From: a virus
DNA: 64,000 bases
Virus record (IMG/VR): IMGVR_UViG_3300033153_002115
Coordinates: 34,469 to 98,468 of that record
Direction: 5' to 3' (one strand)
Below, one piece after another: positions 516-38,773 of this stretch. Below the pieces are notes generated by a model. It was given only the letters and a program-made list of their open reading frames with translations, was not told the origin of the DNA and made no database searches. The number at the start of each line of letters is the position of its first letter. Within the stretch, counting starts at the first letter, position 1. Made by a program: the position numbers and the translations under genes.

Positions 516-2012
516 ATGGCTAGATTAAAAAGAAAAAGTAAAGTTAATCCCTATTCTCTGGGAGGTATAGCAATGAGTGCCGGTGCTGGAGTCGCTGGAG
601 GAGCTGCCGGAGGTCCAGTAGGAATGATTGCAGGTGGAGCTATAGGTTTAGCTAAAGGGATATTCGGACATGTAGCTGAAGAAAAAGCTGCAGAAGTAGC
701 AGCAATACAAGAAAACTTAGCACAAGTAGCAGCAACACAAACTAAATTATCTAGTATGACAAGTAAAGGAGGTAAATTGCTTAATGCAGCAGGACAAGAG
801 ATAAACCCGTTTAATAAGAATGCCTATGGAGGTTTCAATAAAACCAGAGACCTTGAAGAGTATAATGTTGGAGGTTCCCATGAACAGAACCCTAACGGTG
901 GTATCCAAGTTGGTATAGGTGAGAATGGGAAGCCTAATACTGTAGAAGAAGGTGAAGCTGCTTTTGATGATTTTGTATATTCTAATAGGATACCTTACCA
1001 AAAAACAGACACTTTACCGGGATTTGTTAAAGGGGATACTGTTGCAGATGCAGCTAAATCTATCAAGAAAGCTTTTGCCAATAGAAATGATAAGTATTCT
1101 AAAGATACAGAAAAAGAACTGTATGGGCGTCTTGCTAAATGGCAAGAACAACGTAAACAAGAAATGGATATAGGACAAAAAGAGGATACTTTACAAGGAC
1201 AAAACCAATTTACTGGAGGGGGTTTTCCAGAAAGTGTATTTAACTTTGATAAAGATGCAATAGGAAATACAGCTTTTCCAGAAAATAAGTTCATCACACC
1301 TGAAGGCGTGCCAGGTATAAGAGAAAGTATGGCTGCGAATACAGCAGTAACTGAAGGAGTAACTGAAGAAGGTTCTACAAAAGATCAAACTTGGCTTGAA
1401 AGAAATAAGGATACATTACAAACCGGAGCTTTAATAGTAGGAGTAGGGTCTCAATTAGCAGGAGTGGCGTCTAATATAAGGGCGAAGAATAGACTTGAAA
1501 AATCACCGCCAGTTGTAGCAGAGACTTTAGACCCGAATCAAATAAGTCCTCATTTAGTCAATAAAGGAGAAATTCTGACTCAAATAGGTAGAGGACAACA
1601 ATCCGCTATTAATGCTTTAGGAGCCAGAGCTAGTGGAAACTTTGGGGCTTTTGCTGCAAATGTGGCTGGTATACAAGGTAAAACAGCCGAAGCTACTTCT
1701 ACAGCAATGCTACAAGCAGAACAGATGGATGCCGCAGAGTTAGCTAGAGTTGAAGAATCACGAGCAGGTATTAATCAGTTCAATGCGAAAATGCGAATGG
1801 CGGCAACAGAAGCTACTGCACAAGATACTGCTGCTTATGAAGGACAAAGAGGAAGATACGAAAGAGATACAGTAAGGAATATAGGCTCTCTTGGACAGAG
1901 TTTAATTAATTACGTAACAGGTACAAAATTTGCTGAGTACGAAGGAAAAGCCGCAGAAGCAGAAGCTTTAAGTGAAGACCCTTACAGATATTCAAAAAGA
2001 AGAAATAGTTAA
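516..2012 (+). CDS. Virion (cargo/ejection) protein, 498 aa
   Basis: Gly-rich hydrophobic N-terminal segment, GGSHEQNPNGGI...VEEGE...YSNR domain typical of crAss-like virion proteins, Ala/Gln-rich helical C-terminus. Confidence 0.65.
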   Translation: MARLKRKSKVNPYSLGGIAMSAGAGVAGGAAGGPVGMIAGGAIGLAKGIFGHVAEEKAAEVAAIQENLAQVAATQTKLSSMTSKGGKLLNAAGQEINPFNKNAYGGFNKTRDLEEYNVGGSHEQNPNGGIQVGIGENGKPNTVEEGEAAFDDFVYSNRIPYQKTDTLPGFVKGDTVADAAKSIKKAFANRNDKYSKDTEKELYGRLAKWQEQRKQEMDIGQKEDTLQGQNQFTGGGFPESVFNFDKDAIGNTAFPENKFITPEGVPGIRESMAANTAVTEGVTEEGSTKDQTWLERNKDTLQTGALIVGVGSQLAGVASNIRAKNRLEKSPPVVAETLDPNQISPHLVNKGEILTQIGRGQQSAINALGARASGNFGAFAANVAGIQGKTAEATSTAMLQAEQMDAAELARVEESRAGINQFNAKMRMAATEATAQDTAAYEGQRGRYERDTVRNIGSLGQSLINYVTGTKFAEYEGKAAEAEALSEDPYRYSKRRNS

Positions 2013-2024
2013 TATTTAAAAGAT

Positions 2025-4121
2025 ATGGGAGTAGTAAATAGATTTACACAAGCGCAAGATCCATTAGTATTCAACCCTATAAGTGTTGAGCAGTTTGCTA
2101 TGGTTCCATTAGCTAAAGCTAAAGCTAAAGCTTCTGGTATACGTGCAGTTTCTAGTTTAGATATAGACTATGATGTTGATCAAAAAGACCAAGCCAGGAT
2201 AAAGAACAGTGTAGATGCTGTAGATGCGGGTAAGGATAAAGTCATAAACCGTATTATGTCTGAAGGGGTTACGGATAACATGATAACAGAATTTATGGGT
2301 TTAAAACAAACCTATAAAGCTGTTAAAAATGATGTTAAACTAGCAGAGACTAATAAAACCCGTATTGATAAGTGGAAAGCTCAAGTGATGCAGTTACATC
2401 AGAATGACCCTAAGTACATACAATATATTTATGATAAAGAATACGAAAATAAATGGACAGGGACTTTCAGGGAAGATGGTACTTCTAATCAATTTGAAGC
2501 GGAACTTGGGCCAAGATCATTTAGCATAGTGGATGATGCCGCACAGGCATTAAAAGGTATACCGATGACTATGAAAGATGATATTAAAGGTGGCGGTAAA
2601 TTTGTTATGGAACCTGACCCTAATAATCCGGACGGTCCAGGTTATATGACTTGGGTTACTACTGAAGGTAAAAAAGTATATGAGAACAACTCGAATGTCC
2701 TTTTAAGGATGAACGCCTATCTCAGAGAATATAGAAATACAGAAACTCAACGAGGAGCTTACGCCGGTTATAGAGGGATAAAAGATGAGTACATAGAGAA
2801 TGTATTTAATGATATGGCTCAGTCTATGTTTAGAAGCGAAGTTAGAGGAGGTGGAAGTAAAACACAAGTATTAAATAAAATAGAACCACCTGCAGAGTCT
2901 ATTGTTGAACCAGGATTGACTATAAAAACTAACATAGACCATAGTACAGAAGCTGTAGGGAAAGGACAAGAGTTGGATTATAATCCTGCAGTTCGGGCTG
3001 GAATTATGGGAATTAAGCCGGTAATTTCAACTATAGGTTCTGCTATAGAAGCTATACTGCACCCCGGGGAGTTTATGTTTAGTTTATTTACTACTGCGCC
3101 ATTAGAGAAACGTACAGAGCTTATAAGTGAAGGGTTAGAGAAAGCAGGTGAAGCGTTTAGTACAGATACAAAAGAAGTACAAAGAATTCAAAGTGTTGCA
3201 GGGCAGGTATATATAGACAAAGCTTTAAAGCAGTTAACATATGATAGGGAAAGAACTGGAAATACTTATGACTATAGAGAAGGTTTAAGTACAAAAGAGA
3301 ATACGCTTATGACTAAAATCGAGGCGTTTCAAATTAAAATAAACAATAAAAAATTTGACAATCCTCAAGAAGCTTATGCTGATTTTTATCTGGAAACTAT
3401 AATGCCTTATATTGATCAAGAAGTTAAACATAAAACCCAAGAATTTACTTACTCTACTCGTAAGAGTCTGGAGAATAAAGAGATGGGTTTCAAAAATGAC
3501 AATAAAGGAGAAGCTGCAGATAATGTAAAAGCCTTAACACAAAAATCTACTCATAAGATATTCTTTATGGGTAATAAAACTGTTATAGGAAACGGTAGTA
3601 CTGCTGGAGAAAACCTAATAAAAGGCTTGCGTAATTTCCAACCTACTAAAGTCGGGGCTTTAAAATCAGGGGAGTATTTTACTGAGGAGATAAGTGTAGG
3701 GGGAGCTCACCCGGGTATGTATCTAAATAGAAATGGGAAGTTTGTAGATGATATAGCTTATGGCACTATGTATGCTTTATATGAAAAGACAAGTGATGGT
3801 ACTAAAACAATAGGGAATTATATGGTAAGTCCTCCTGAACATGTACGTAAGAACCCAAAATATGTAAGGAATCAGAATACAATGAGAGCGATGGGTAATA
3901 TCGGAATAGAAGGAGTACCTGTACCTATGACATGGTATAGAGGAGGACAAGCGTATAGAGTTGATATGATAAAGTCTGGAATGCCTACAAACGCAGCTAA
4001 TACAGCTAACAATGAATATGGCGTAACAGGTGCTGGGGCTTTAACTTTTATATTACCTGAAACAGGGGATACATTCAAATTCGATCAATCAGATTTAGAT
4101 AATCTAGAAGTAATACGATAA
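2025..4121 (+). CDS. Virion cargo protein, 698 aa
   Basis: Long ORF in the cargo block with N-terminal NRF...FNP motif; no cysteines seen. Confidence 0.55.
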   Translation: MGVVNRFTQAQDPLVFNPISVEQFAMVPLAKAKAKASGIRAVSSLDIDYDVDQKDQARIKNSVDAVDAGKDKVINRIMSEGVTDNMITEFMGLKQTYKAVKNDVKLAETNKTRIDKWKAQVMQLHQNDPKYIQYIYDKEYENKWTGTFREDGTSNQFEAELGPRSFSIVDDAAQALKGIPMTMKDDIKGGGKFVMEPDPNNPDGPGYMTWVTTEGKKVYENNSNVLLRMNAYLREYRNTETQRGAYAGYRGIKDEYIENVFNDMAQSMFRSEVRGGGSKTQVLNKIEPPAESIVEPGLTIKTNIDHSTEAVGKGQELDYNPAVRAGIMGIKPVISTIGSAIEAILHPGEFMFSLFTTAPLEKRTELISEGLEKAGEAFSTDTKEVQRIQSVAGQVYIDKALKQLTYDRERTGNTYDYREGLSTKENTLMTKIEAFQIKINNKKFDNPQEAYADFYLETIMPYIDQEVKHKTQEFTYSTRKSLENKEMGFKNDNKGEAADNVKALTQKSTHKIFFMGNKTVIGNGSTAGENLIKGLRNFQPTKVGALKSGEYFTEEISVGGAHPGMYLNRNGKFVDDIAYGTMYALYEKTSDGTKTIGNYMVSPPEHVRKNPKYVRNQNTMRAMGNIGIEGVPVPMTWYRGGQAYRVDMIKSGMPTNAANTANNEYGVTGAGALTFILPETGDTFKFDQSDLDNLEVIR

Positions 4122-4125
4122 TAAT

Positions 4126-7100
4126 ATGCCACTATACGAAGATGGGGAAAAGATCAACTATAATAAAGATGATTATAACCCAGTAACTCAAAGAAATGAG
4201 CCTTTAAAGGCAGATCTACTTGCTGCTAAAGAAAAGGCCGCTACCAAAGTACCAGATTGGGTAGATAAAGGTACTATTGTTACAAGTGACTTAGACCCTA
4301 AGAAGAATGCTATTACATTAAGTGGTTATGGTAATCGAGGTATCGGTCCTGGTGATTTAGACGAGGACTATGATATGTATGGTGCCTTTGGTTCTTGGGA
4401 TGAGATAAAAGCTAATAGAATAGCATTACAATCAGATTGGGCGAAAGGAAGTCGTGCTGTTTTCGGCGGTTTAATGAAAGGTATAGGTACTGCGTTTAAA
4501 GACGTAGGGTTTATGTTAGATTGGAGAAGCTATGCCAAGGTTGGTGGTCTTATGAACATGGAAGAGACTGGAGCCATTAATGATATACTTAATAATGTCG
4601 GGGATTGGATACATGAATCTGTAGATGAATATGCTCCTATATACGAAAAGAACGATACTAAGTCTATTGTAGGACAACTTATGAAATGGGGTACTGTTAG
4701 TAGTATACTAGATAGTGCTGTTGGTTTTGCTTTACCTGGAGGTGTCGCATCTAAAGCCGGTACTTATGCTATGAAAGGTGTAGCTCTTAGTGGTAAACTT
4801 TTAAAATGGACTAATCGTCTAACAAATTTATCCAGAAGTGACGCTGTTGCTTTACGTTTGATGAGAGCAGAGAAAGCTTTTATAAATTTACAGAAAGCAG
4901 CCCCAAAAGCATCAAATATAATAAACACTGTAGGTCCTATGACTATGCAAGGTATAGGAGAAGGTATGTGGGAAGCTACTGATTCTTATAAAGAACATCT
5001 TGAATCAGTATCTGATTTAGTTTTAACAGGAGAGTTAAGTTTACAAGACGCAACTAATCAAGCTAATGATATAGCTGAAAACGTATTGCAACTAAACATG
5101 GCTAAAAGTTTCTTAAATCTACATATATTTAATAGTGTAGCTAGGAAATTTGGTAAAGGTCTTATAAGAAGTAAACCTACATTTGGAAAGAAGTTACAAA
5201 GTATGGTAAAGGAGATGCCTTTAGAAGCAATAGAAGAAGGCGGCCAAGAGATTTTCAAGAAAGAATCAGAATTTAGAGCTATGCGTGAGTACGAAAAAAC
5301 TCATAAAAATAGTCCTGTATTAGAAGAGTTACGAAAGAAAGGTAAGTATTCTGGTAATTTACCAAATGACTTCTTTGAAAGAATGGCTAATCTAACTAGC
5401 ACAAATCAAGTTTTATTAGCAGGTATTATAGGTGCTGTATCTGGGCCTATTCAACACGCACTTATGAGAGGTGTCGGCAGTAAAAAAAGATTTAAAGACC
5501 AAGTAGATGCGTATGAAAAGCAACAAGCTTTTATTAAAAAGCGTCAAGGGGTTTTGGACGACAGTGATGAGTTTAAAAAGTTTATTGAGCAGGTAAATAA
5601 AGATAATAAAAAAACAGGAGGAGCCACATTTAAAAAGGTAAAAGCAGAACAAGATCTAGCTAAGACTGTAGATAAAACAGCTCTAACAAATAAACTGATA
5701 GAGTTGGCTGATAATATGGATAACGACGATTTACGTGAGTTAGTGAAAAAGCAAGCTTATACAGCTCTTATACAAGAACACGTAGCTGCTGGTACTTATG
5801 AATATCTGGAAAAAGAAGCGGCTAAGTACTCTGGAACTAATCACCATATGAGTGAACTTGCAGGATATATGAAGCGCCTTAAACCTGTAATCAATAAGTC
5901 TAGGGGGTATTTAAATGAAGGTAATATATTTAATACAGCCATGGGTATAGAGTTAAGTAAAGACTTAAAGAAAGCATATACCGGGATGTTAGAGGAAATA
6001 CAGACAGATAAACTAGATAAGACTACAGAAACTCTTGAAGAGCATGACCATCAAATACAACTTATAAATACTATTAAAAAGATAGATGAAAATATACAGA
6101 CGGAACAGGAATACTTAAAGTCTATTACTTCTATGAAGCATCAACATCTATTATCAAGAGAGTTGATATATGATAATGAAAAGAAAAAAGCACTAGAGAG
6201 TCTTGTTAATGTAAAGACAAAGTCACAACTAAATAGAATAATAAGAGCATATCCAGAACTACGTGGGACTAAAGAATATACAAATCAAGTTAGAAATATA
6301 GAATCAGGTAAAGTTACAAAAGCACCTAAAAAGAAAATAACTGCAGCTACTAAGTCAGTAGAGCAACATGAGAAAGAAACTACACAAACTGTAGAAGAAA
6401 ACATACCTGGAACAAAAGAGGGTTTAACTCAACACGATGAAAACCAAGGACGAGTTATTAACGAAGAAGGTAAAAAGGTCAATAAAGCAGGAGTTCCTAT
6501 ATTAGCTATAGAAAATATAGAAGCTCATGTGACAGGAGCTGTTACAGATGTGTCAGATAAGATATCACCAGAAGAGGTAAATGATATTACAAAGATAGTG
6601 CATAGAAAATATGAAAGAGAAGCAGACACTTTTACAAGTCCAGAAGAACAGGTGACTTTTGTAGAAAACCTTGTGAATGATATAGTGCAAGGTTACGTAG
6701 AAGGAGAACGTACTGATATACAAGAAGAACAAGAAGAAGTAAATCAAGAGGTACAAAGACTTGAAAGACGTACTGAGTTATTTGGATCTACAGATACAAC
6801 ACAAAAACTTCCGGAAGAGTTGTTTGAAGAACATATAGCACATTTACAAGAAGTAAAAGTATTTAATGATGAAGTAGATAAGTTAAAGAAAAAAACTACG
6901 CTTACTGAAGAAGAAGATGCCTTTTTAATGCAGGTACCAGAAAATGCAGACGCTACTAGTAAAGAGTTAATCGCTGAAGTGAGAGCAATAGCTGAAGCAA
7001 TAGGTCATGAAAAACCTGATGGGTTTGTGAACTTTAAAGATTACGTGGAGTACCTTAAAGCTATTCTTGGGGAAGATTTTGTAAATGATAATTTCATAGA

Positions 7101-23700: not shown

Positions 23701-25538
23701 AAGAATTTACAAAGAAAACTTTATGGGATAATGCAGTAAACTATGCTGCAGGTAAAGATAATAAAAAAGAAATAACAGATCCAGTTACAGGTAAAACTGT
23801 AAAAGTACTGGATAAAGGAGTACAAACCTTAGAGTCTTTAATATCTAAGGAAATGAAAAACATACACGAAGTTAGGGAGTTAAATCCACAACAAATTAGA
23901 GAGTTATCTGCCGAAGATAGAGCTGAGATATACCGAGAAGCATCGGATATTGTAATGAAGAGTCATAGTGGTGATATATTTAAAGCCCTTAACTCATTAA
24001 ATCTTGCGGCTCTTTCTTATGGATATAAATCTGCTATTAAACCTGAAATAGATATGGCTCTCCACTACTTAGAGCAAATGGAAGCAGGTATATCGGATGA
24101 AGAGTTCAGTTTTGGTGATATAGATAGTAAAGATGTAGGCAATGTTAAAGACATGGTAGACTACTTTATCGACAGAGAATACTTCGATATAGGAAACCAG
24201 GATAAGTCGATGAAACTGCCGATTTCTGTCTATACATCGGATGAAAAGAGAAGAAGAAAGCAATTGTTAGAACAATTAGAAAGACTAGCTACAGATCAAA
24301 CTCTAAAAGGTAAAACTACAAAGAAACGTCTTGAAACAGAATTAAAAGAAATCGGGCGTAATGTAACAGTGAATTCTATCCTTAAGAGTTTAATGGATTT
24401 TATGAGAATATCTACAATGGGGTGGAATATACAGTCAGCTATTGCTAACTTTATGCAAGGTCAGATAGTAAATATAATACATGCCGCTGAAGGGAAATTG
24501 TTTACTTGGGAAACTTTAAAAGCAGCTTATTCTACAGTATTTACAGAAAAGTTCGATAATATTATAAAGAACTACGCTGTTCTTGGTGATATTATGTATG
24601 ATTTTGAACGTAAGAACCCATTCGAAAAGAAAAAAGGGGTTTTCGGTAAAATAAAAAGCGCTGTAATGCCTTACGCTGGTACAAAAATAGCCGAAAAATT
24701 GAATCAAGGTAACATAACTGTTGCTATGTTAATGCATATGCAAGTACAAGATAAAAATGGTAATGATATAAGCATTTGGGATGCTATAGATGATAAGGGG
24801 ACTTTATCAAAAGAATACACATTTAATGGACAGAAAGGAGACGCAGCTATAGCAGAAGTTATTATACCTATAAGAGATCAAATAAACTTAATTCATGGTG
24901 ACTATAATAACGCTAAATTACTTGGTAAAACTATTGTAGGTAAAGCAGCATCGATGTTTCATTTATGGTTTTTTGAACCATATCATGCGCATTTTGGAGC
25001 AAGAAAATATAATGCTATTTTAGGTAGAGAAACAAGAGGACGTGTATTATCGGCTATGGAATTAATCCCAAAATACGGATTAAGTTATAAAAAAATGCGA
25101 CAAGCTAGAGCAACCGAGAAAATAACTGAAGTTGATCTTAATAATATAAAAGTACTTTTTATGGAACTTAGTGCTATAGCTGTTACAGGGTTACTATCTC
25201 TATTAGCTAAAGCTACTTTATGTAATGATGAAGAAACCAAATGTGGTGGTGTAGGGACTACTTATCTAGTTAATACTCTTAATCGTATAGCAAGAGAAGT
25301 AAAAACATTTACAGATCCTACTGCATATTATGATCTTGTAACGAATCCTGTCGCTGTAGCTAGATACCTTAAAAGTATAGCTAGGATATTCCAGTATATG
25401 AGTGATGCGGCAGCAGGAGAGGATATGGATAATAAAGATGGGGATAATAAAATACTTATAACTTTAAGTAAAGAATTCCCTATATTAAGAAGATTAATTA
25501 TTGAACGTGATTTAATGGAAAATATTAGAAATTATTAA
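20790..25538 (+). CDS. Giant virion cargo protein, 1582 aa
   Basis: Last gene of the cargo block; N-terminal FIEKFGDW...NEP motif seen in large phage virion proteins; helical body; hydrophobic C-terminal segments. Confidence 0.65.
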   Translation: MQCLNINLPSIRKNLDDLTKLTGDKEVAYATLASNNGYTMKQTMTGKVSSLYNELEAISNIPEEAEILKMNVHSSEFIEKFGDWRNLKQGRLNTDNEPKLFTETGKYYYIGEKNKRISIKVNKPASFKKVAPLTSEETNNALKKQYTKDTEGPIKKGSFVSFKSKDGGITDAMVYKVNPNGSFNLFNTTTVTKDHIGILQNKTPRQLTKKGDYHTIGGAKGKPEVLVLYANKDRKEPLILNIKDKISVNKQSSNIQQNYIDAAVQYGLSKEPTIKPTETVETKPLHTDKDKVFVHAENVQEVDEVKAGIDEDISNGVKVFMVLPPQFANQHDMAISAYLTDMDWVYNVNEGVAYFAKPKAKIPTTESQKVPGPTQSFSKRTPGTITDSKGNLHKLGTLAANMIQFLQEKRQDALPYLRQGKQLVSKIERALLKAVPDATLFIYNKIPEVVLANRQLKERIATDSKDPRIRQVTGSDNIDLYNSLMYDLYTETVHRAMQLDRKVPGKGGSFNLRSDHIQAKLRNDIRSLEERKLNLQNTGAANKDIDAVTTEINDINAILEQDVEEYNLKTLKDIAKTDLAKARRILAKENISPDEFVRAKNILQNWIDVGNFEDTDKNIFLDESQAVNPEIQKDFKEIANEAESIKDTSLNNKGRNLITSKISSTLNKVFNFNDITKLKNKVNGWFKTVFSIAKVDNPTVAYIMKTINTAAKKAEVKAITESNHLAELYETLRQKGFDFELFWQKDKDGTVTGNLVSEYTSEYLKRLRNFKRGYGRLSDYKNDNVFIDVSRLAGASTLAIEKYVEELTPIIGRDKAISAVAEADMLFKRYMEIKDHYLMAEFGVENEEELEAGSEEASRMLQWKIQNSPAIRAAAIDKANTGTFNEIQGAAADRFLVTVPKKFDENGKPTELYDDTFTSITEDTDAAAFYKRAYEITKKAKEHFNTSGMTEYALGAIQNTILEEYQEHGIKEFTKKTLWDNAVNYAAGKDNKKEITDPVTGKTVKVLDKGVQTLESLISKEMKNIHEVRELNPQQIRELSAEDRAEIYREASDIVMKSHSGDIFKALNSLNLAALSYGYKSAIKPEIDMALHYLEQMEAGISDEEFSFGDIDSKDVGNVKDMVDYFIDREYFDIGNQDKSMKLPISVYTSDEKRRRKQLLEQLERLATDQTLKGKTTKKRLETELKEIGRNVTVNSILKSLMDFMRISTMGWNIQSAIANFMQGQIVNIIHAAEGKLFTWETLKAAYSTVFTEKFDNIIKNYAVLGDIMYDFERKNPFEKKKGVFGKIKSAVMPYAGTKIAEKLNQGNITVAMLMHMQVQDKNGNDISIWDAIDDKGTLSKEYTFNGQKGDAAIAEVIIPIRDQINLIHGDYNNAKLLGKTIVGKAASMFHLWFFEPYHAHFGARKYNAILGRETRGRVLSAMELIPKYGLSYKKMRQARATEKITEVDLNNIKVLFMELSAIAVTGLLSLLAKATLCNDEETKCGGVGTTYLVNTLNRIAREVKTFTDPTAYYDLVTNPVAVARYLKSIARIFQYMSDAAAGEDMDNKDGDNKILITLSKEFPILRRLIIERDLMENIRNY

Positions 25539-25539
25539 G

Positions 25540-25625
25540 AAGAGAGGATGGGATTCGAACCCACGGAGCTTTTACACCCTCTGATTTAGCAAACCAGTGC
25601 AATAGACCAACTCTGCCACCTCTCT
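25540..25625 (-). tRNA. tRNA-Ser(GCT)
   Basis: Anticodon arm CTGGT-TT GCT AA-ATCAG, long variable arm, TTCGAAT T-loop. Confidence 0.9.
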
Positions 25626-25630
25626 TTATG

Positions 25631-25701
25631 AGATGCCGGTCAGGATCGAACTGACGAACGGAGCTTTGCAGGCAACTACCTTACCACTCGGTTACAGCAT
25701 C
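25631..25701 (-). tRNA. tRNA-Cys(GCA), imperfect anticodon stem
   Basis: Loop CT GCA AA; acceptor GATGCTG/CGGCATC; two mismatches in the anticodon stem. Confidence 0.75.
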
Positions 25702-25704
25702 ATG

Positions 25705-25776
25705 CACAGGGAGTAGGATTCGAACCTACAAACTACGCTTTTGGAGAACGCTTGCCACACCTATAACTGCCCCTGT
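25705..25776 (-). tRNA. tRNA-Trp(CCA)
   Basis: Loop CT CCA AA; acceptor ACAGGGG/TCCCTGT, G73; atypical D-arm. Confidence 0.8.
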
Positions 25777-25780
25777 ATTG

Positions 25781-25860
25781 TGCCTCACGAAGAATCGAAC
25801 TTCCTAGTCATTAGACACCAGATTTACAGTCTGGTCCTGATCCCACTCAGCAGACTCGGC
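25781..25860 (-). tRNA. tRNA-Tyr(GTA), irregular acceptor stem
   Basis: CCAGA-CT GTA AA-TCTGG, long variable arm; acceptor stem only partly paired. Confidence 0.7.
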
Positions 25861-25865
25861 ATTAG

Positions 25866-25950
25866 AGGAAAGTGTGGGATTCCAACCCACAAGACTTTGA
25901 CATCCTACTGGTTTTCAAGACCAGGCCCTCGTGCACCACGGACACTTTCC
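25866..25950 (-). tRNA. tRNA-Ser(TGA)
   Basis: CTGGT-CT TGA AA-ACCAG; acceptor GGAAAGT/ACTTTCC; long variable arm. Confidence 0.85.
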
Positions 25951-25955
25951 TTATG

Positions 25956-26028
25956 TGGAATCAGATAGACTCGAACTACCGTCTCAAGATCTTCAATCTC
26001 GTGCTATTGCCTCCTCAGCTATGATTCC
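25956..26028 (-). tRNA. tRNA-Phe(GAA)
   Basis: CGAGA-TT GAA GA-TCTTG; acceptor GGAATCA/TGATTCC. Confidence 0.88.
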
Positions 26029-26033
26029 ATTAG

Positions 26034-26108
26034 TGCGGAAAGAGAGACTCGAACTCTCAGAACTCTGGAGCCTAAATCCAGCGACTTTACCTATTTGCCC
26101 ACTCCCGC
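26034..26108 (-). tRNA. tRNA-Leu(TAG), short variable region
   Basis: CTGGA-TT TAG GC-TCCAG; acceptor GCGGGAG/TTTCCGC; only 6 nt between anticodon and T arms. Confidence 0.85.
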
Positions 26109-26114
26109 ATTTTG

Positions 26115-26201
26115 TGCACCTGGTGAGAGTCGAACTCACAAGACCATCACTGATCACTGGGGCTTAAACCCAGCGCGTTTCTCCAGTTTCGCCACAGACG
26201 C
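26115..26201 (-). tRNA. tRNA-Leu(TAA)
   Basis: CTGGG-TT TAA GC-CCCAG; long variable arm; A73. Confidence 0.9.
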
Positions 26202-26204
26202 ATA

Positions 26205-26241
26205 TAAACCAGAAAGACCCTACTCGTTAAAGTAAGGTCTT
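26205..26241 (-). terminator. Attenuator terminator of tRNA operon B
   Basis: Hairpin AAGACCTTACT-TTAACG-AGTAGGGTCTT followed by TCTGGTTT, just before tRNA-Leu(TAA); its 5' arm (CCTTAC) can alternatively pair with GTAAGG in the leader. Confidence 0.75.
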
Positions 26242-26272
26242 AGTACTATATTGTATTATTTATATAGCTATC

Positions 26273-26332
26273 CTAATCCCTTACCGAAGTAAGCAGCGAC
26301 CAGAAACTAAATAAATAACATGTTGTTTTCAT
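26273..26332 (-). CDS. Leader peptide B, MKTTCYLFSFWSLLTSVRD (19 aa), putative attenuator of the Leu/Phe/Ser/Tyr/Trp/Cys tRNA operon
   Basis: Translated by hand. Codons TGT TAT TTA TTT AGT TTC TGG TCG CTG CTT match the 8 downstream tRNAs; the 3' end overlaps the antiterminator arm. Confidence 0.85.
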   Translation of the reverse strand: MKTTCYLFSFWSLLTSVRD

Positions 26333-26442
26333 AAAATGTTATATTAAAACCGGTTAAATTAATAACCGGCCTTTACAATTTAAAGTGTCAATCAGGTTTT
26401 GCACCCCTGTTTTACATGACAAACTCGTTGTTTTTGCGGTAA

Positions 26443-26474
26443 CAAATATACACCTTATATATTATACAACCAAA
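26443..26474 (-). promoter_or_regulatory. Bacteroidota sigma70 promoter for tRNA operon B
   Basis: TTTG-N20-TATATTTG, matching the -33/-7 consensus. Confidence 0.75.
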
Positions 26475-26480
26475 TAAAAG

Positions 26481-26553
26481 TTACCCCGGCTGGATTCGAA
26501 CCAGAATTACAAGGCTCAAAACCTTGTGTGCTTGCCGTTTACACTACAGGGCA
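26481..26553 (-). tRNA. tRNA-Gln(TTG)
   Basis: CAAGG-TT TTG AG-CCTTG; U1-A72. Confidence 0.88.
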
Positions 26554-26558
26554 ATATG

Positions 26559-26631
26559 AGAAGGTGAAAGGAATCGAACCTTCAACCTCCGAATTCGTAG
26601 TCCGGGGCTCATCCATTTGAGCTACACCTCC
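26559..26631 (-). tRNA. tRNA-Arg(ACG)
   Basis: CCGGA-CT ACG AA-TTCGG. Confidence 0.88.
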
Positions 26632-26636
26632 ATTAG

Positions 26637-26709
26637 TGATGCCTCTGGGTTTCGAACCCAGGCTCTTCGCATTAAAAGTGCGAGGCTTTACCAACTAAGC
26701 TAAGACACC
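26637..26709 (-). tRNA. tRNA-Lys(TTT)
   Basis: TCGCA-CT TTT AA-TGCGA. Confidence 0.9.
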
Positions 26710-26826
26710 TGATAAATAGAATATCTATACTCCTTTATCGGTGCGGCCAGTTCTCCGTACATCTCTACGACCTCCAAGCCTCTTGAATTAACACTATACA
26801 TAACATTTAATTTTAATTAATACTAG

Positions 26827-26901
26827 TACTGCCAACGAGGCTCGAACTCGCATCTTCCAGGATGAAAACCTGACGTCCTACTCCATTTAGACTACAGCAG
26901 C
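26827..26901 (-). tRNA. tRNA-Glu(TTC)
   Basis: TCAGG-TT TTC AT-CCTGG. Confidence 0.88.
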
Positions 26902-26912
26902 ATATAATTTAG

Positions 26913-26984
26913 AACCCCTACCGAGAGTCGAACTCAGGACTTGGGTTTAGAAGACCCACGCTTTTCCAGTTAAGCTATAAGGGT
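26913..26984 (-). tRNA. tRNA-Arg(TCT)
   Basis: TGGGT-CT TCT AA-ACCCA. Confidence 0.85.
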
Positions 26985-26989
26985 ACCTG

Positions 26990-27063
26990 TAGGGATGGCA
27001 GGAATTGAACCGACGCTCTCCCGGATATCAGCCGGGCACTTTAACCAACTAAGCTACACCCCC
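26990..27063 (-). tRNA. tRNA-Ile(GAT)
   Basis: CCCGG-CT GAT AT-CCGGG. Confidence 0.88.
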
Positions 27064-27068
27064 ATATG

Positions 27069-27144
27069 TTGACCTGGGCGGATTCGAACCGACGACTTCT
27101 TCCTTGTAAGGGAAGCACTCTGAACCAGACTGAGTTACAGATCA
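27069..27144 (-). tRNA. tRNA-Val(TAC)
   Basis: CTTCC-CT TAC AA-GGAAG. Confidence 0.88.
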
Positions 27145-27149
27145 ATTTG

Positions 27150-27223
27150 CGGACTGGTAAAGATTCGAACTTTACATACTTTCTGATATTCATCAGATTT
27201 TCTTTCCCGTTAATTTACAGCCC
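27150..27223 (-). pseudogene. tRNA-like element with 6-nt anticodon loop and no clear D-arm
   Basis: Acceptor-like GGGCTG/CAGTCC, T-arm GTAAAG-TTCGAAT-CTTTAC, arm TCTGA-TGAATA-TCAGA. Confidence 0.6.
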
Positions 27224-27230
27224 AATATAG

Positions 27231-27306
27231 CGGTCCCGGAGGGTATCGAACCCTCGTTTTTCTAGCGTGACAGGCTAGATCCCCGGCCATTGGGGCTCAC
27301 GAAACC
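27231..27306 (-). tRNA. tRNA-Asp(GTC)
   Basis: CTAGC-CT GTC AC-GCTAG; G73. Confidence 0.88.
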
Positions 27307-27310
27307 ATTG

Positions 27311-27384
27311 TGGGCAATGCTGGATTTGAACCAACGACCTTCTCCTTATGAGGGAGCTGCTCTACCTGACTAAGCTAAAAGCCC
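27311..27384 (-). tRNA. tRNA with CAT anticodon, probably Ile2 (lysidine, reads ATA)
   Basis: Loop CT CAT AA; 5' GGGCTTTTAGCTTAG resembles Ile2 rather than Met; leader A contains an ATA codon. Confidence 0.7.
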
Positions 27385-27389
27385 AAAAG

Positions 27390-27464
27390 TTGCGGGAGTG
27401 AGAATCGAACTCACGTTAATCTTGCTTATGAGACAAGGCTGGAACCCCTCCAGACCACCCCGCA
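27390..27464 (-). tRNA. tRNA-Met(CAT)
   Basis: Loop CT CAT AA; fMet-like acceptor TGCGGGG/TCCCGCA but lacking the three anticodon-stem G-C pairs. Confidence 0.8.
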
Positions 27465-27566
27465 ATATAAGATCAGGTGTCGCACCTAAAGACTTACTTA
27501 AATCCAGCTCGGAACTGCAATCTATTTATCTTAGCGATACAAGGGAATCGAACCCTTCACCTAATG

Positions 27567-27639
27567 AGCCTCCGACAGGAATCGAACCTGTTATCCTCTG
27601 ATTACAAATCAGTAGCTTCGCCAGCAAAGCTTAAGAGGC
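27567..27639 (-). tRNA. tRNA-Thr(TGT)
   Basis: CTGA-TT TGT AA-TCAG; acceptor GCC/GGC. Confidence 0.85.
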
Positions 27640-27643
27640 ATAA

Positions 27644-27683
27644 TTGGTCGGTGTTTTTATACAGGTACCAACCAAGAGCCTGT
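27644..27683 (-). ncRNA. Putative 40-nt H-type pseudoknot RNA in a tRNA spacer
   Basis: S1 ACAGG/CCTGT, L1 CTC, S2 TTGGTTGGT/ACCGACCAA, L2 A, A-rich L3 ATAAAAAC. Confidence 0.5.
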
Positions 27684-27688
27684 CTTCG

Positions 27689-27762
27689 AGCGAGTAGACG
27701 GGATCAAACCGACTCTAATCCTGGTTGGAAGCCAGGTGCACCATCATTTATGCGTTACTCGC
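27689..27762 (-). tRNA. tRNA-Gly(TCC)
   Basis: CCTGG-CT TCC AA-CCAGG; acceptor GCGAGTA/TACTCGC, U73. Confidence 0.88.
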
Positions 27763-27767
27763 TTATG

Positions 27768-27839
27768 CGGAATGAGATGGATTCGAACCAACGTACATCT
27801 GCTTAACAGGCAGGCGCTAAGCCGCTTAGCTATCATTCC
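27768..27839 (-). tRNA. tRNA-Asn(GTT)
   Basis: CTGC-CT GTT AA-GCAG; G73. Confidence 0.88.
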
Positions 27840-27843
27840 TTAG

Positions 27844-27915
27844 TGGAGCCGAAGTGAATCGAACACTCGTAACTCTGCTTGCAAGGCAAAGCTTCTAACC
27901 AACAAGACCAACCCC
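27844..27915 (-). tRNA. tRNA-Ala(TGC)
   Basis: Loop CT TGC AA; G3:U70 identity pair present. Confidence 0.85.
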
Positions 27916-27919
27916 ATTG

Positions 27920-27993
27920 GGTGTATGATGAGACTCGAACTCACTTCAACTGGAACCACAATCCAGCCCCTCGGCCACTTCGGGATCATACAC
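27920..27993 (-). tRNA. tRNA-His(GTG)
   Basis: CTGGA-TT GTG GT-TCCAG; C73; position -1 encoded as T, not G. Confidence 0.85.
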
Positions 27994-27995
27994 AG

Positions 27996-28069
27996 TAGGG
28001 TGAGTCAGATTCGAACTGACGGACCGGTGATTCCAAATCACCGTAGTATAGCCTCTGCAATACCACCCT
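27996..28069 (-). tRNA. tRNA-Pro(TGG)
   Basis: GGTGA-TT TGG AA-TCACC; acceptor AGGGTGG/TCACCCT. Confidence 0.8.
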
Positions 28070-28073
28070 ATAT

Positions 28074-28111
28074 AAAACAAAAAAGACCTTCCTGTTTAGT
28101 CGGAAAGTCTT
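28074..28111 (-). terminator. Attenuator terminator of tRNA operon A
   Basis: Hairpin AAGACTTTCC-GACTAAACA-GGAAGGTCTT plus TTTTGTTTT immediately before the first tRNA; its 5' arm can alternatively pair with GGAGGGCTCTTGCT in the leader. Confidence 0.85.
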
Positions 28112-28141
28112 ACTTGTGTTATTTTATATTATACGATAATA

Positions 28142-28219
28142 TCACATAGCAAGAGCCCTCCCACGAATTGTATCCGCCTTCGGCTGCTCGACTGTATGTA
28201 TATTATTCATTGTTCTCAT
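28142..28219 (-). CDS. Leader peptide A, MRTMNNIHTVEQPKADTIRGRALAM (25 aa), putative attenuator of the 16-tRNA operon
   Basis: Translated by hand. Contains all 14 amino acids served by the downstream tRNAs and no C/Y/F/W/S; the 3' end overlaps the antiterminator arm. Confidence 0.85.
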   Translation of the reverse strand: MRTMNNIHTVEQPKADTIRGRALAM

Positions 28220-28223
28220 GTTG

Positions 28224-28231
28224 CAAATATA
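28224..28231 (-). promoter_or_regulatory. Bacteroidota sigma70 -7 element for tRNA operon A
   Basis: TATATTTG-CAAC-ATG: the leader start codon sits about at the expected +1 (near-leaderless mRNA); -33 element not canonical. Confidence 0.7.
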
Positions 28232-28317
28232 TATAAAAGATTCGATTTTAAAGTCCTTTAGAATGAATTATTTTAAAATTTCTTACCTATGATACTGTTA
28301 GATTGATTCTCAAAGGG

Positions 28318-31020
28318 TTAGATATGCCCACCTGTAGACCATTTAGTATATAATGCCTGACTTGATGCTAATGAGAAATTTCCTGGTAAAGTAGTCGGCT
28401 GAATACTTAACCATAACTCATCTCCAAAATCACCATCTCTTCTTGCTATCATTTCTGACACATCTAATAACGCTTGGAAAGTAATCTTTTCATCTAACAC
28501 GGCAGCTTTACTTATAACTATACTATTTGAATTGGTTATAGGAGCACCAGGTTCTGAATAAGTAATAGGATCACCATCTTTTAACCATCCCCAACGTACA
28601 GTCCATTCATAAGTTCCTGTAGAATTTGCATGCCCACTCCACATTAATTTAATAGGACTTGAAGTATCAAGATCAAAAGGCAGAAATCCACTAACACCTA
28701 ATATATCACCTGTAGCTGTAAATTTGTTATTTGTTAATCCTGCTCCTATATCTTCACTTATATATAAAGTCTGACTCTGCATACTACCTTCAAAAGGTTT
28801 ACCAGAAGCTAAGTTCAAACCTAATTGTGCTTCAGGTCTAGCTGTACCAAAGAACTCTATCCAACCATCACCATTTACCTCAAGTCTGTTTGAATGCACT
28901 TTCCATTGTTCGAATACAGGAGCTGTAGTAATAGTTGCTGTAATTCTATATCGTATCCAATAATAATCTACACCTAATACAGGTGTTATAGGATCATTCT
29001 TGGCCCACCCATCATTTTGTAGTACACTATCATATCTAATTTGAGTAGAGCCTACAGCCTGGAAAATGTTTTTAGCTTTTGGGTAATACTTTCCACCAGA
29101 ATCTGCTTCCATTACATTAAGTTCAACCCAAACACTTCCATTCCAGTATTCTGTAACAATATTTCCTGTACCAAAAACTGCAGCTAAAGTAACTTTTGTT
29201 TTAATACCATAATGATGTAGAACATCTACAGTATCAGCACGCATACTTGCTATATATATAGCAGAATCGGCGTCTAAATTAGGGAACGTAAAAGTAGATC
29301 CACTAGCAGATTTAGCCGCAGCAGAAACATCCACAAAAGAAGCACCATCATAAGTATACACTACCATACCGGCAGTATAACTATCTCCTTCACCAAACAC
29401 ACTTTCTGCTGGTATCCCTGGACTTCCTACGTGTAACTCGCCAAGAATATTTAACCCTTCATCATCTTCACTTACATCCAGTATATAAACATAAAAACCA
29501 GCTCCAGGTATGACGTAGCTGTTATTGATCTCAGAAAATCCGTTACCTGTAACAAGAGAATTAGGATTTAACACATTAAAATTAAGCCCAGTACATTGGG
29601 TTATAGTTGTAGAAAATAGACTTACTTTTACATTAGTTCCTACATTGTCAACCCTAAACCCGTTGTTTTGACAGAACATTATACGTAAAGCATCAAATCT
29701 AACGTCGGTGTTATCCCCTGAAATAACCATAGCATCGTAAACATACCCTATAGAGGCAGTACCACCTAGAAGTAAAGCACCATCTAATACCTGTAATACA
29801 GTTGTAATAGTAGGACTTATTGTTATTAGATTATGAAGACTTACTTTTGTATTAGGGCCGGATATGATAATACCATTAGTTACAATTACAGTTGATCTGA
29901 ATGTTATATTATCTAAATCCGCATTTCCACTTTGAATGTTTATAGCATTTACAGTAGTTGTTAAAGCAGGGTTATTTACAGTTAAAGCTGATATTTCAAA
30001 AACAGCGCTTGCGTGATTTAAATAAAACCCATTAGCAGCATCTCTTAATACACAATTATTCACTGTAGTGACACCAGGACTTTCGTGTTTCAATATATAA
30101 GCAGTACCTGTATTACCACTGAACACTATACCAGTTATGTATGCAAATACACCGCCGGTAAACATATCATTAGTAGTAACTAAAGGTTTGAATACTATAG
30201 CTCTTCCACCAATAGCAGTGATATTAGTAAAGTCTTTTAGAGCAATAGGCCCTAAACTATTATCTATAATATATTCACCAGGAGCAACTTCTATACTATA
30301 CCTATTTGCAGAAGTGTTATCTGTAATAGAAGCTATAGCCAAAGCTATGTCTGTAAAGTCCCCTCCAGATTTAGCTACAGTAATAACATTACTTAAAGTA
30401 CCGCCTGCAGGGAAGGTTATAGATTGATCGATTATATAATCAACATTAAGTTCATCAAAATGCTTTAATGGGACTAATATCCAATAGATAAAAGCTGCTG
30501 GATTAGTTGCCAAAGTTCCTGATAGTGTATAGTTACCACTACTATCCAGAGTGTTAACAACAACACCAGTTGCAGCGTAATCCGGCTTACCATCCACAAT
30601 ATTGCTGACCACAGCATCTTCACCATTCGCCCACTGATCGAAGAGGATTGTACTACCCGTAGGTGGGCTGATTTGGCCGCTAGTGCTTGTACCATTGATT
30701 TGCTCATAATATAGTATTTTAATTTGTGTATCTTCTATAGCAGTCATTCTACCTTCCAATGACGTAACATCACCGGCATATCCACCCTTAAAAAAGTCCT
30801 TAGTAGCGACAAGTAGTTCTGCTAGATCAGTATAATAGGAATCATCTTCTTTCTGGAGATATACAATCTCTGTAGGACTCATAGTTGACTCATGAGTATC
30901 TGAAGACTCTATAGCTACTTTAAGTCCATTATCATAGATTCTAAGTATATATCTACCAGCAGGAAGAATATCATTACCTACATGAAATATATTATTAAGT
31001 GCTTCTTTATAGAAATACAT
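28318..31020 (-). CDS. Tail spike/fiber with pectin-lyase-like beta-helix
   Basis: ITVAKSGGDFTDIALAI...IEVAPGEY beta-helix cap followed by Asn/Ile/Val-rich coils; N-terminal about 80 aa shared with 33483..34151. Confidence 0.75.
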   Translation of the reverse strand: MYFYKEALNNIFHVGNDILPAGRYILRIYDNGLKVAIESSDTHESTMSPTEIVYLQKEDDSYYTDLAELLVATKDFFKGGYAGDVTSLEGRMTAIEDTQIKILYYEQINGTSTSGQISPPTGSTILFDQWANGEDAVVSNIVDGKPDYAATGVVVNTLDSSGNYTLSGTLATNPAAFIYWILVPLKHFDELNVDYIIDQSITFPAGGTLSNVITVAKSGGDFTDIALAIASITDNTSANRYSIEVAPGEYIIDNSLGPIALKDFTNITAIGGRAIVFKPLVTTNDMFTGGVFAYITGIVFSGNTGTAYILKHESPGVTTVNNCVLRDAANGFYLNHASAVFEISALTVNNPALTTTVNAINIQSGNADLDNITFRSTVIVTNGIIISGPNTKVSLHNLITISPTITTVLQVLDGALLLGGTASIGYVYDAMVISGDNTDVRFDALRIMFCQNNGFRVDNVGTNVKVSLFSTTITQCTGLNFNVLNPNSLVTGNGFSEINNSYVIPGAGFYVYILDVSEDDEGLNILGELHVGSPGIPAESVFGEGDSYTAGMVVYTYDGASFVDVSAAAKSASGSTFTFPNLDADSAIYIASMRADTVDVLHHYGIKTKVTLAAVFGTGNIVTEYWNGSVWVELNVMEADSGGKYYPKAKNIFQAVGSTQIRYDSVLQNDGWAKNDPITPVLGVDYYWIRYRITATITTAPVFEQWKVHSNRLEVNGDGWIEFFGTARPEAQLGLNLASGKPFEGSMQSQTLYISEDIGAGLTNNKFTATGDILGVSGFLPFDLDTSSPIKLMWSGHANSTGTYEWTVRWGWLKDGDPITYSEPGAPITNSNSIVISKAAVLDEKITFQALLDVSEMIARRDGDFGDELWLSIQPTTLPGNFSLASSQALYTKWSTGGHI

Positions 31021-34200: not shown

Positions 34201-34572
34201 TTATACTTTTATCCGTGTAAATGAAAAAGTAGTAGTTTGATAGGTTATATATAGCCTATCTTCTATTATAGAATATGTGCATTTGTTATTAAATAACTCT
34301 AATAATTGAGGAACTGTAATAGTTACCTGTTTCCAGGTTATCACATTACCAATTACTTCATAACTACCTTCAAACATCGCTACAGCAGTATTACCGCTAA
34401 AAATAGACTCTTTAAAGTTAATTTCAATATCCGGGATAGATAAAGATTTCCAAGCACCAAGTAAACGGTTTACTGGTCGACCTGGAGGGTTGTATGGAAG
34501 GCCAGTTTTTTTCTCTTTACATTTAAATAGTTGTTTAACCCAAGCAATAAATTGTATGAATAAAGTTTTCAT
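34201..34572 (-). CDS. META/HslJ-like beta-barrel protein
   Basis: LLGAW...FSGNT....FEGSYEVIGNVITW...T pattern; the usual Cys pair is absent. Confidence 0.45.
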   Translation of the reverse strand: MKTLFIQFIAWVKQLFKCKEKKTGLPYNPPGRPVNRLLGAWKSLSIPDIEINFKESIFSGNTAVAMFEGSYEVIGNVITWKQVTITVPQLLELFNNKCTYSIIEDRLYITYQTTTFSFTRIKV

Positions 34573-37985: not shown

Positions 37986-38773
37986 AATGATTTGATTGCT
38001 TCTGTTACTAAACGTACTTGTTTTAAGGTTATGTCTTTAATACAGCCTATTTCAATAGAACCATGTTTTACAGAAAGTGTATCATATTGCGCAAGTTGTA
38101 TTCCTATTTCACCTGTCTTGGCTATAGAATAAAACTGTTCTACTTTATCATACCAATCTAACCACTGTTTTGTAGTAACAAAATAGATATTAACTGTAAC
38201 CCCTGAATGTGTAACTATAGCTTTTCTATCACCTAACATTAACTTAGGTTCTTTTAGTTGCCAATTATTAACTCGTGGTAGTTTAGACATTGCACAAGTC
38301 CCACAAATTCCAGTATTATTTAAATCAGCGTATTCAAATACACAAGTTTTACAAGTCTTATCAATATCATAATCAGAACCTTTTTGTATAGGTATTTCAG
38401 CAGCTTTATGTAAAGCATCTTCTGCCCACTCTATATTTTTTTCAGCTTGTAATTCAGCAAAATACTGTTGAGCATTTTCTTTTGTTGAAAAGTATTTGTA
38501 TACAACAACTTTACCCGAACGAGTAGTACAAAGTTGATTATATAGAAAAGTACTTGAAGTAAACCACCAATACATATCTCCTACATAAATATCTACACCA
38601 TCTTCAGTAGTAAATACGTGTGGTGCAAAATAGTCAGAATATTGTTCTACAATACTACAACGTATAGGACTTCCTTTATCCCCTTCATAATAACTTATAG
38701 TTTCATATCTATCTTTAATTATATCTCCTTTTTCATAAGGTGGATAATCTTTAAGTAATTTATATTGTTTCAT
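37982..38773 (-). CDS. Hypothetical protein
   Basis: 263 aa; FTTEDGVDIYVGD motif; CxxC pairs. Confidence 0.6.
   Translation of the reverse strand: MKQYKLLKDYPPYEKGDIIKDRYETISYYEGDKGSPIRCSIVEQYSDYFAPHVFTTEDGVDIYVGDMYWWFTSSTFLYNQLCTTRSGKVVVYKYFSTKENAQQYFAELQAEKNIEWAEDALHKAAEIPIQKGSDYDIDKTCKTCVFEYADLNNTGICGTCAMSKLPRVNNWQLKEPKLMLGDRKAIVTHSGVTVNIYFVTTKQWLDWYDKVEQFYSIAKTGEIGIQLAQYDTLSVKHGSIEIGCIKDITLKQVRLVTEAIKSL

Follow-up and report, generated by a model that had tools for sequence, protein, structure and literature searches.

A codon-matched leader ORF and switchable terminator before eight phage tRNA genes: a probable ribosome-mediated transcription attenuator

It has long been asked why phages carry tRNA genes and at what stage they use them, and the locus analysed here poses it in a specific form: what does a short open reading frame (ORF) do when its codons are cognate to eight tRNAs and it stands, with a terminator, directly before the genes for those same eight tRNAs? 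Phage tRNA arrays are explained as compensation for codon usage or as replacement of host tRNAs that are cut or degraded during infection (see Bailly-Bechet 2007, as cited in PMC11590407). The window, meaning the whole stretch of DNA analysed, comprises 64,000 nucleotides (positions 34,469 to 98,468) of IMG/VR record IMGVR_UViG_3300033153_002115, a complete virus record of 98,468 bp with terminal repeats and approximately 34% G+C. Judged by its giant virion protein and its polymerase, the window phage is a very distant crAss-like phage, with a DNA polymerase approximately 25% identical to those of IAS virus and cr108_1. Its tRNA array is convergent with a gene of 1582 amino acids and downstream of one of 900 amino acids. 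Searches through the two flanking giant proteins each led to one distant contig, neither with a homologous tRNA array, and megablast against phage records returned nothing useful; Cellulophaga phage phi17:2 was reached only by sensitive blastn of the tRNA array. An Rfam cmscan of positions 24000-30000 (E <= 1) detected no T-box and no leader family (Leu, His, Thr, Trp, Phe), its matches being tRNA models and three weak unrelated elements (salivarius-1 sRNA and two plastid UTR elements). The array, its second block and the ORF before that block are located as follows.

28069 to 25539, minus strand: tRNA array of the window phage (ARAGORN and Rfam)
25539-26201, minus strand: block B, eight tRNA genes (ARAGORN and Rfam)
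About 25861-25779, minus strand: non-canonical tRNA-Tyr(gta) of block B, scoring only 24 bits with Rfam
26332-26273, minus strand: leader B ORF, 19 sense codons plus TAG (ATG at 26332-26330, TAG at 26275-26273)
26320-26291, minus strand: regulatory run, codons 5-14 of leader B and also segment 1, cognate to 8/8 block B tRNAs

The block B genes follow in the order Leu(taa), Leu(tag), Phe(gaa), Ser(tga), Tyr(gta), Trp(cca), Cys(gca) and Ser(gct), and ARAGORN calls seven of them, missing Tyr(gta). The anticodon arm and T-loop of this Tyr gene are perfect, whilst its acceptor stem contains a tandem G.A mismatch and its T stem one mismatch; it may be impaired or decaying, though a Tyr codon is still present in leader B. 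At the far end of the block, the stop codon of the plus-strand 1582-aa gene abuts the 3' end of the last tRNA, Ser-gct, with zero spacer (25538/25539), and a separate terminator is not evident at this boundary.

The first-pass annotation, made from the letters alone, had counted eight tRNAs downstream and had described ten consecutive leader codons (TGT TAT TTA TTT AGT TTC TGG TCG CTG CTT) in which every tRNA of the operon is represented. The count was right, with the qualification that the Tyr gene is non-canonical, its low Rfam score and stem mismatches suggesting that it may be impaired. The codon run reads exactly so at 26320-26291 (C Y L F S F W S L L) and offers at least one cognate codon to each block B tRNA, including both Leu and both Ser isoacceptors, with decoding of CTT by Leu-UAG requiring four-way wobble. 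By itself the run is weak evidence, the genome being T-rich: runs of at least 10 codons of this class occur 21 times in the 98-kb genome (both strands, all frames), giving p ~0.01 for leader B's spot. Among approximately 104,000 open 10-codon windows, only that of leader B lies wholly within the codon set and also covers 8/8 tRNAs.

Five further codons follow the run before the stop, and the peptide begins M-K-T-T, a start in common with related leaders. Like ORFs of Bacteroidota in general, it lacks a Shine-Dalgarno sequence. Flanking-protein, terminator-frame and metagenome searches revealed no close orthologue of leader B: a metagenome scan for any synonymous spelling of its first 11 codons gave no match, and a scan for the terminator frame common to leaders A and B gave 29 unrelated matches, 0 of them beside tRNAs. 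The nearest relatives have the start and a 3' motif in common with leader B, and since the resulting five-sequence alignment was too small for column-wise covariation, a cross-module pairing test was used instead.

The first block of the same array, block A, has a leader of its own with the following features.

28142-28219, minus strand: leader A ORF, 25 codons, with cognate codons for 16/16 block A tRNAs
28072-28122, minus strand: leader A terminator, a strong one with its core at 28110-28084 and a long U-tract, immediately upstream of the tRNA-Pro at 28069
About 28164-28099, minus strand: leader A antiterminator, a predicted fold

Leader A begins 4 nt after a TAnnTTTG box and is the only site in the genome where 24 codons cover 16/16 block A tRNAs. 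It contains 0 codons for Cys, Phe, Ser, Trp and Tyr, and leaders A and B together divide the 20 amino acids just as blocks A and B do. Within block A, a tRNA-like gene (27149-27223, minus strand) combines a weak D arm with a six-membered anticodon loop, in which ARAGORN places an anticodon of two bases. Two structured spacers of 102 and 116 nt (27465-27566 and 26710-26825, minus strand) are not called as tRNAs, the former with a T-arm-like hairpin near its 5' end, and no terminator was found in either.

How transcription reaches leader B is less clear-cut, since no promoter was detected directly at this leader, unlike at its relatives. Two features upstream bear on the point.

26443-26474, minus strand: candidate promoter of the Bacteroidota type (TTTG, 20 nt, TAnnTTTG), some 105 nt ahead of leader B
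26345-26374, minus strand: terminator-like hairpin with A-tract and U-tract, 14 nt upstream of the leader B ATG

The Bacteroidota promoter pattern has 5 matches in the window against 3.3 expected, which is not an enrichment, and the candidate is not significant alone. Four nucleotides past the promoter-like pair (26474-26443) lies a stretch resembling the start of leader B, with no ATG, and then the bidirectional-looking terminator hairpin. This hairpin (26345-26374) could mark where block A ends, act as a pause site or be left over from a lost module. The region as a whole (26345-26474, minus strand), lying between tRNA-Gln and leader B, may likewise be a lost-module remnant or the end of block A, and it may be readthrough out of block A that brings transcription to block B.

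Between the codon run and the first tRNA, the leader B transcript is predicted to form three mutually overlapping structures, and its whole fold has a z-score of -5.7 against shuffled sequences.

26320-26254, minus strand: 1:2 anti-antiterminator hairpin, -21.0 kcal/mol
26285-26231, minus strand: 2:3 antiterminator, helices of 7, 4 and 7 bp, -15.7 kcal/mol
26203-26241, minus strand: 3:4 intrinsic terminator, 11-12 bp stem, UAAC loop and imperfect U-tract (core 26241-26214, -14.7 kcal/mol)

The antiterminator overlaps the 5' arm of the terminator, the anti-antiterminator includes the codon run, and the terminator lies 13 nt upstream of the first tRNA, tRNA-Leu. Most of this architecture had been proposed from the letters alone. 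Folding agrees with the earlier 2:3 antiterminator; the 3:4 terminator, with 12 pairs, was the top call of a consensus terminator scan over the array region; and the stop codon does fall within segment 2, inside the 5' strand of the 2:3 pairing. The U-tract, described earlier as imperfect, is indeed interrupted, reading UCUUUCUGGUUU, so basal readthrough may be high. The earlier 1:2 hairpin was in part too small: its cUUCGg hairpin (26293-26280) is present, and the predicted pairing is larger, joining the entire codon run with segment 2. The proportions of the 1:2, 2:3 and 3:4 energies resemble those of the trp leader.

Equilibrium folding of full-length leader B with a masked ribosome never lost the terminator, and this approach was replaced by folding of transcripts cut before the terminator's 3' arm, with the ribosome placed codon by codon. 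As the terminator wins at full-length equilibrium, the model needs kinetic, co-transcriptional pre-emption, as in classical attenuators such as the trp leader. In the cut transcript, the probability of the 2:3 pairing was 0.76 with the ribosome on codons 7-12, 0.23 with the ribosome at codon 14 and 0.05-0.2 further on. Without a ribosome, the 1:2 pairing sequesters segment 2 and the probability of 2:3 is again 0.23. Compared with shuffled sequences, the leader B antiterminator taken alone was not significant for pairing (8% of shuffles reach it) and marginal for energy (2%).

The design of leader B proved common to 16 other modules, 15 of them outside the window phage. The set of 17 comprises leaders B and A, three modules of phi17:2 (identical in Cellulophaga phage phi4:1), three of Maribacter phage Panino and nine from IMG/VR, the latter retrieved from a scan for the promoter-plus-start motif, in which 15 of 118 loci were followed by tRNAs. 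In each of the three phi17:2 modules a host-type promoter is followed by a tiny ORF, then by a strong terminator and finally by the tRNA block, and three homologous modules occur in Panino, one at a separate locus. The leaders and blocks of phi17:2 and of some of the IMG/VR modules are given here.

phi17:2 leader 1: 11 codons in a row, specifying Q, R, L, H, E and P, ahead of the block Pro-Glu-Gln-His-Leu-Leu-Arg(acg)
phi17:2 leader 2: 16 codons, specifying T, K, G, I, V, D, A and R, ahead of the block Ala-Lys-Ile-Gly-Met-Asp-Thr-Val-Arg(tct)-Met
phi17:2 leader 3: codons for N, Y, C, S, W and F, before the block Tyr-Ser-Ser-Asn-Trp-Phe-Cys
IMG/VR module: a leader run of L, Y and S only, before a block of Tyr, Leu and Ser tRNAs only
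IMG/VR module: a leader with S, L, Y, F and C, before the block Tyr-Phe-Leu-Ser-Ser-Cys-Leu
IMG/VR module: a leader run of L, R, E, C and W, before the block Glu-Arg-Leu-Trp-Cys-Arg
IMG/VR contig with two modules: AGG in the first leader with Arg-cct in its block, Trp and His in both the second leader and the second block

In phi17:2/phi4:1 and Panino, the assignment of Asn and Leu to blocks differs from that in the window phage, and the leader codons differ accordingly. The tracking of the tRNA partition by leader codons extends to the isoacceptors of Arg, Leu, Ser and Ile; for Arg, CGY goes with Arg-acg, AGA with Arg-tct and AGG with Arg-cct. In the two-module contig (3300033388_000958), a Cys codon in the leader predicted a tRNA-Cys(gca), which was found in a 75-nt gap before tRNA-Ser(gct); it is poor in its D arm, escapes ARAGORN and falls short of the Rfam gathering threshold. 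On another IMG/VR contig (L142), the leader has Ser and His codons and no Ser or His tRNA was found in the block; the AT-rich gaps of this block (89 and 97 nt) may be what is left of lost tRNAs, and if they are, the leader lags behind the decay of its block.

A TAnnTTTG box stands 4 nt before the ATG in 5 of the first eight modules (window phage, phi17:2 and Panino); the nine IMG/VR modules also have the box, but the pattern by which they were retrieved requires it. Several leader ORFs are already present in GenBank as "hypothetical proteins" (phi17:2 gp077, Panino CDS0063 and CDS0108), two of them with spurious N-terminal extensions, and phi17:2 gp078, also a "hypothetical protein", overlaps an unannotated tRNA-Ser(tga). 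The mis-read features lie at 2789-2908 and 4730-4831 of NC_021798.1 (L036) and at 25306-25401 (L040) and 37990-38091 (L039) of Panino (PP540027.1).

The design is not universal, since IAS virus lacks such leaders. Of two gut crAss-like phages probed, IAS virus (NC_049978.1; 22 tRNA matches by Rfam) was covered in detail, and its tRNA arrays showed Bacteroides/host-type promoter boxes and no codon-matched leaders. For the IAS virus region 1847-4861, RefSeq places 18 tRNAs on the minus strand, where Infernal and ARAGORN say plus.

The correspondence between leaders and blocks was quantified by permuting leaders among blocks, with block contents taken from ARAGORN output and the summed longest cognate run as the score. 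Across the 17 modules the observed score was 170, against 60 +/- 12 for permuted assignments (0/50,000 reaching the observed value), and 11 less redundant modules gave 117 against 43 +/- 11 (0/50,000). The modules are partly related, so these permutation p-values are not exact, the effect being very large. At the amino-acid level, the association of leader and block across the 17 modules had a Fisher odds ratio of 73 (p = 9e-32).

The geometry recurs along with the codons. In every one of the 17 modules the ORF has 19-33 codons and a canonical terminator precedes the first tRNA by 2-13 nt; the 3' part of the ORF is similar to the 3' arm of this terminator and capable of pairing with the 5' arm. 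In cut transcripts with the ribosome on run codons, the terminator 5' arm was paired upstream with a mean probability of 0.39-0.89; at least three codons past the run, the probability was 0.01-0.26 in 16 of the 17 modules and 0.43 in the exception, and in most modules the switch point lay at most about 3 codons from the last codon of the run. Relative to shuffled sequences the pairing was weak per module and reached p = 5e-6 when combined, with lower energies at p = 1e-15; upstream pairing of the arm was discarded as evidence for any single module, being too common in shuffles. In the cross-module test, terminator 5' arms paired with the 3' parts of their own leaders at -179.5 kcal/mol, against -139.8 +/- 8.2 kcal/mol for permuted partners (0/20,000), and leader B ranked 1/17 for pairing with its own terminator 5' arm. 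Sequence and computation show the ORF, the codon match, the terminator and the alternative pairings, together with their co-variation across the 17 modules. Strong 1:2 pairing was confined, among the first eight modules, to leader B and phi17:2 leader 1, and in 6 of these 8 the antiterminator forms without a ribosome (P 0.66-0.96), so that most sister modules would antiterminate whenever translation fails.

We conclude, with a probability of roughly 0.8, that leader B is a ribosome-mediated (leader-peptide) transcription attenuator gating eight phage tRNA genes. Classical leader-peptide attenuation, as the first-pass annotation had it, is supported, every sequence-level requirement of such a system being present; the weight is carried mainly by the 16 other modules, and we take the comparative co-variation of leader, block and terminator to be the decisive evidence. 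We infer that leader B is translated, that its translation is coupled to transcription and that readthrough is regulated, and the sequence of events would be as follows. RNA polymerase would transcribe the short ORF and a ribosome would translate it. With charged Cys, Tyr, Leu, Phe, Ser and Trp tRNAs plentiful, whether of host or phage origin, the ten codons would be read fast and the ribosome would reach the stop, where it would mask segment 2, allowing the 3:4 terminator to form and ending transcription 13 nt before the first tRNA. Were any of those tRNAs scarce, the ribosome would stall in segment 1, the 2:3 antiterminator would form and the polymerase would enter the tRNA genes. In the case of leader B, failure of translation would lead to formation of 1:2 and 3:4 and hence to termination. 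The expected outcome is negative feedback, with each tRNA set supplied on demand. Such a sensor cannot separate tRNA shortage from amino-acid starvation, in which extra tRNA would be useless.

Other explanations were weighed against attenuation. Chance, in the form of a T-rich open frame beside an ordinary terminator between two tRNA transcription units, might be entertained for leader B in isolation, given the 21 comparable codon runs in this AT-rich genome and the frequency with which shuffled sequences pair with the terminator arm; yet leader B is the sole genome window covering 8/8 tRNAs, leader A has the same property, and 15 modules in other phages have codons that co-vary with their blocks (0/50,000), so that coincidence is refuted as far as sequence can go and its probability is close to nil. 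It is also very improbable that the small ORFs encode functional micro-proteins, for example a hydrophobic peptide, with the terminator ending the ORF gene and the tRNAs expressed separately. The conserved ORF length, the M-K/R-T start in 15 of the 17 modules and the annotation of some ORFs as hypothetical proteins in GenBank would suit such a function, but what is conserved is composition and not residue order: in the four leaders that precede Pro-Glu-Gln-His-Leu-Arg blocks, the same residues recur in different orders. Leader composition tracks which tRNAs the block contains, a pattern that no peptide function accounts for. Nor was a promoter-like box detected in the 2-13 nt between terminator and tRNA from which separate expression could start.

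A more substantial alternative, though still an unlikely one, accepts the ORF as real and codon-matched and has it act by another route, with stalling controlling precursor processing or stability or release by RNase P/E, or with the ORF reporting translation capacity or starvation. Formation of the antiterminator without a ribosome in 6 of the first 8 modules, which implies a response to any loss of translation, is in keeping with this, as are the preference of the full-length equilibrium fold for the terminator and the poor U-tract of leader B. These observations must be set against the canonical intrinsic terminator that 17/17 modules keep exactly between leader and first tRNA, the co-variation of the competing segment with that terminator, and the coincidence of the end of the run with the point at which the ribosome begins to cover the competing segment, a geometry specific to attenuation. 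Attenuation consequently remains our preferred reading of leader B.

To our knowledge, all leader-peptide attenuators described so far regulate amino-acid biosynthesis or synthetase genes, while the genes that leader B would regulate are eight tRNA genes; this unusual target is the point of novelty and not a failure of the mechanism. Among enterobacterial leader attenuators, which also include trpL, hisL, leuL and pheL (PMC3082878), those of ilvGMEDA (Ile, Leu and Val codons) and thr (Thr and Ile) are multivalent. Like these two, the phage leaders combine a short ORF carrying regulatory codons, four pairing segments and a stop that masks segment 2, and sense several amino acids; unlike them, they are phage-borne and stand before tRNA genes rather than genes of biosynthetic enzymes. 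Rather than repeating one codon, the phage leaders sample each tRNA of the block one or two times, isoacceptors included, covering 6 amino acids in leader B and 14 in leader A. Many of the sister phage modules are moreover near-leaderless and would antiterminate by default, unlike enterobacterial attenuators.

Genes for aminoacyl-tRNA synthetases are controlled by the pheST attenuator, with its pheM leader, and by T-box riboswitches. In both, as proposed here, a component of decoding is regulated by the supply of charged tRNA. The pheM leader differs in sensing one amino acid and in having a protein gene as its target, and T-boxes differ in binding uncharged tRNA directly without translation, no T-box match having been obtained at this locus. 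The closest published parallel in function is the trn operon of Anabaena sp. PCC 7120, a long tRNA array that is silent and is induced under translational stress (PMC8421152), under the control of the ribbon-helix-helix repressor TrcR (PMC10272220). There, as proposed here, spare tRNA genes stay silent until translation is compromised; the differences are that the Anabaena array is bacterial rather than phage-borne, uses a protein repressor and has no codon resolution, and the text of PMC8421152 (2021) makes no mention of a leader, attenuator or terminator.

In cargo, the array is the same as known phage tRNA arrays, which carry large sets covering most amino acids. Existing accounts have phage tRNAs expressed with the phage programme, whereas each block here apparently has its own gate, a sensor of the codons that its tRNAs read. 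Full-text literature searches turned up no description of tRNA genes under leader-peptide control, and the Panino paper makes no mention of it.

Tentatively, and as a possibility to which we give somewhat less than even odds, the Bacteroidota phage cassettes, in which a promoter and survey leader precede a switchable terminator and tRNA block, may be modular, portable devices for codon-resolved surveillance of the tRNA pool and inducible counter-defence, and the first case of attenuation control of tRNA genes. If this is true, a host that destroys or withholds given tRNAs would switch on only the matching phage block, the loss stemming perhaps from anticodon nucleases, other tRNA-targeting defences, host shut-off or stress, and leaders would be re-tuned whenever tRNAs move between blocks. 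The leaders can also serve as a built-in annotation of the tRNAs in a block, one of them having predicted a Cys tRNA overlooked by ARAGORN, and as compact codon-specific sensors of translation state they may find use as synthetic-biology parts. The presence of the design in three cultured phages (phi17:2, phi4:1 and Panino), for which culturable hosts exist, Cellulophaga baltica for the first two and Maribacter halichondriae for Panino, makes the idea directly testable. Ultimately, if each block is gated by a sensor of its own codons, leader-peptide attenuation would extend from amino-acid and synthetase genes to tRNA genes, and phage tRNAs would be a regulated, on-demand supply rather than constitutive cargo.
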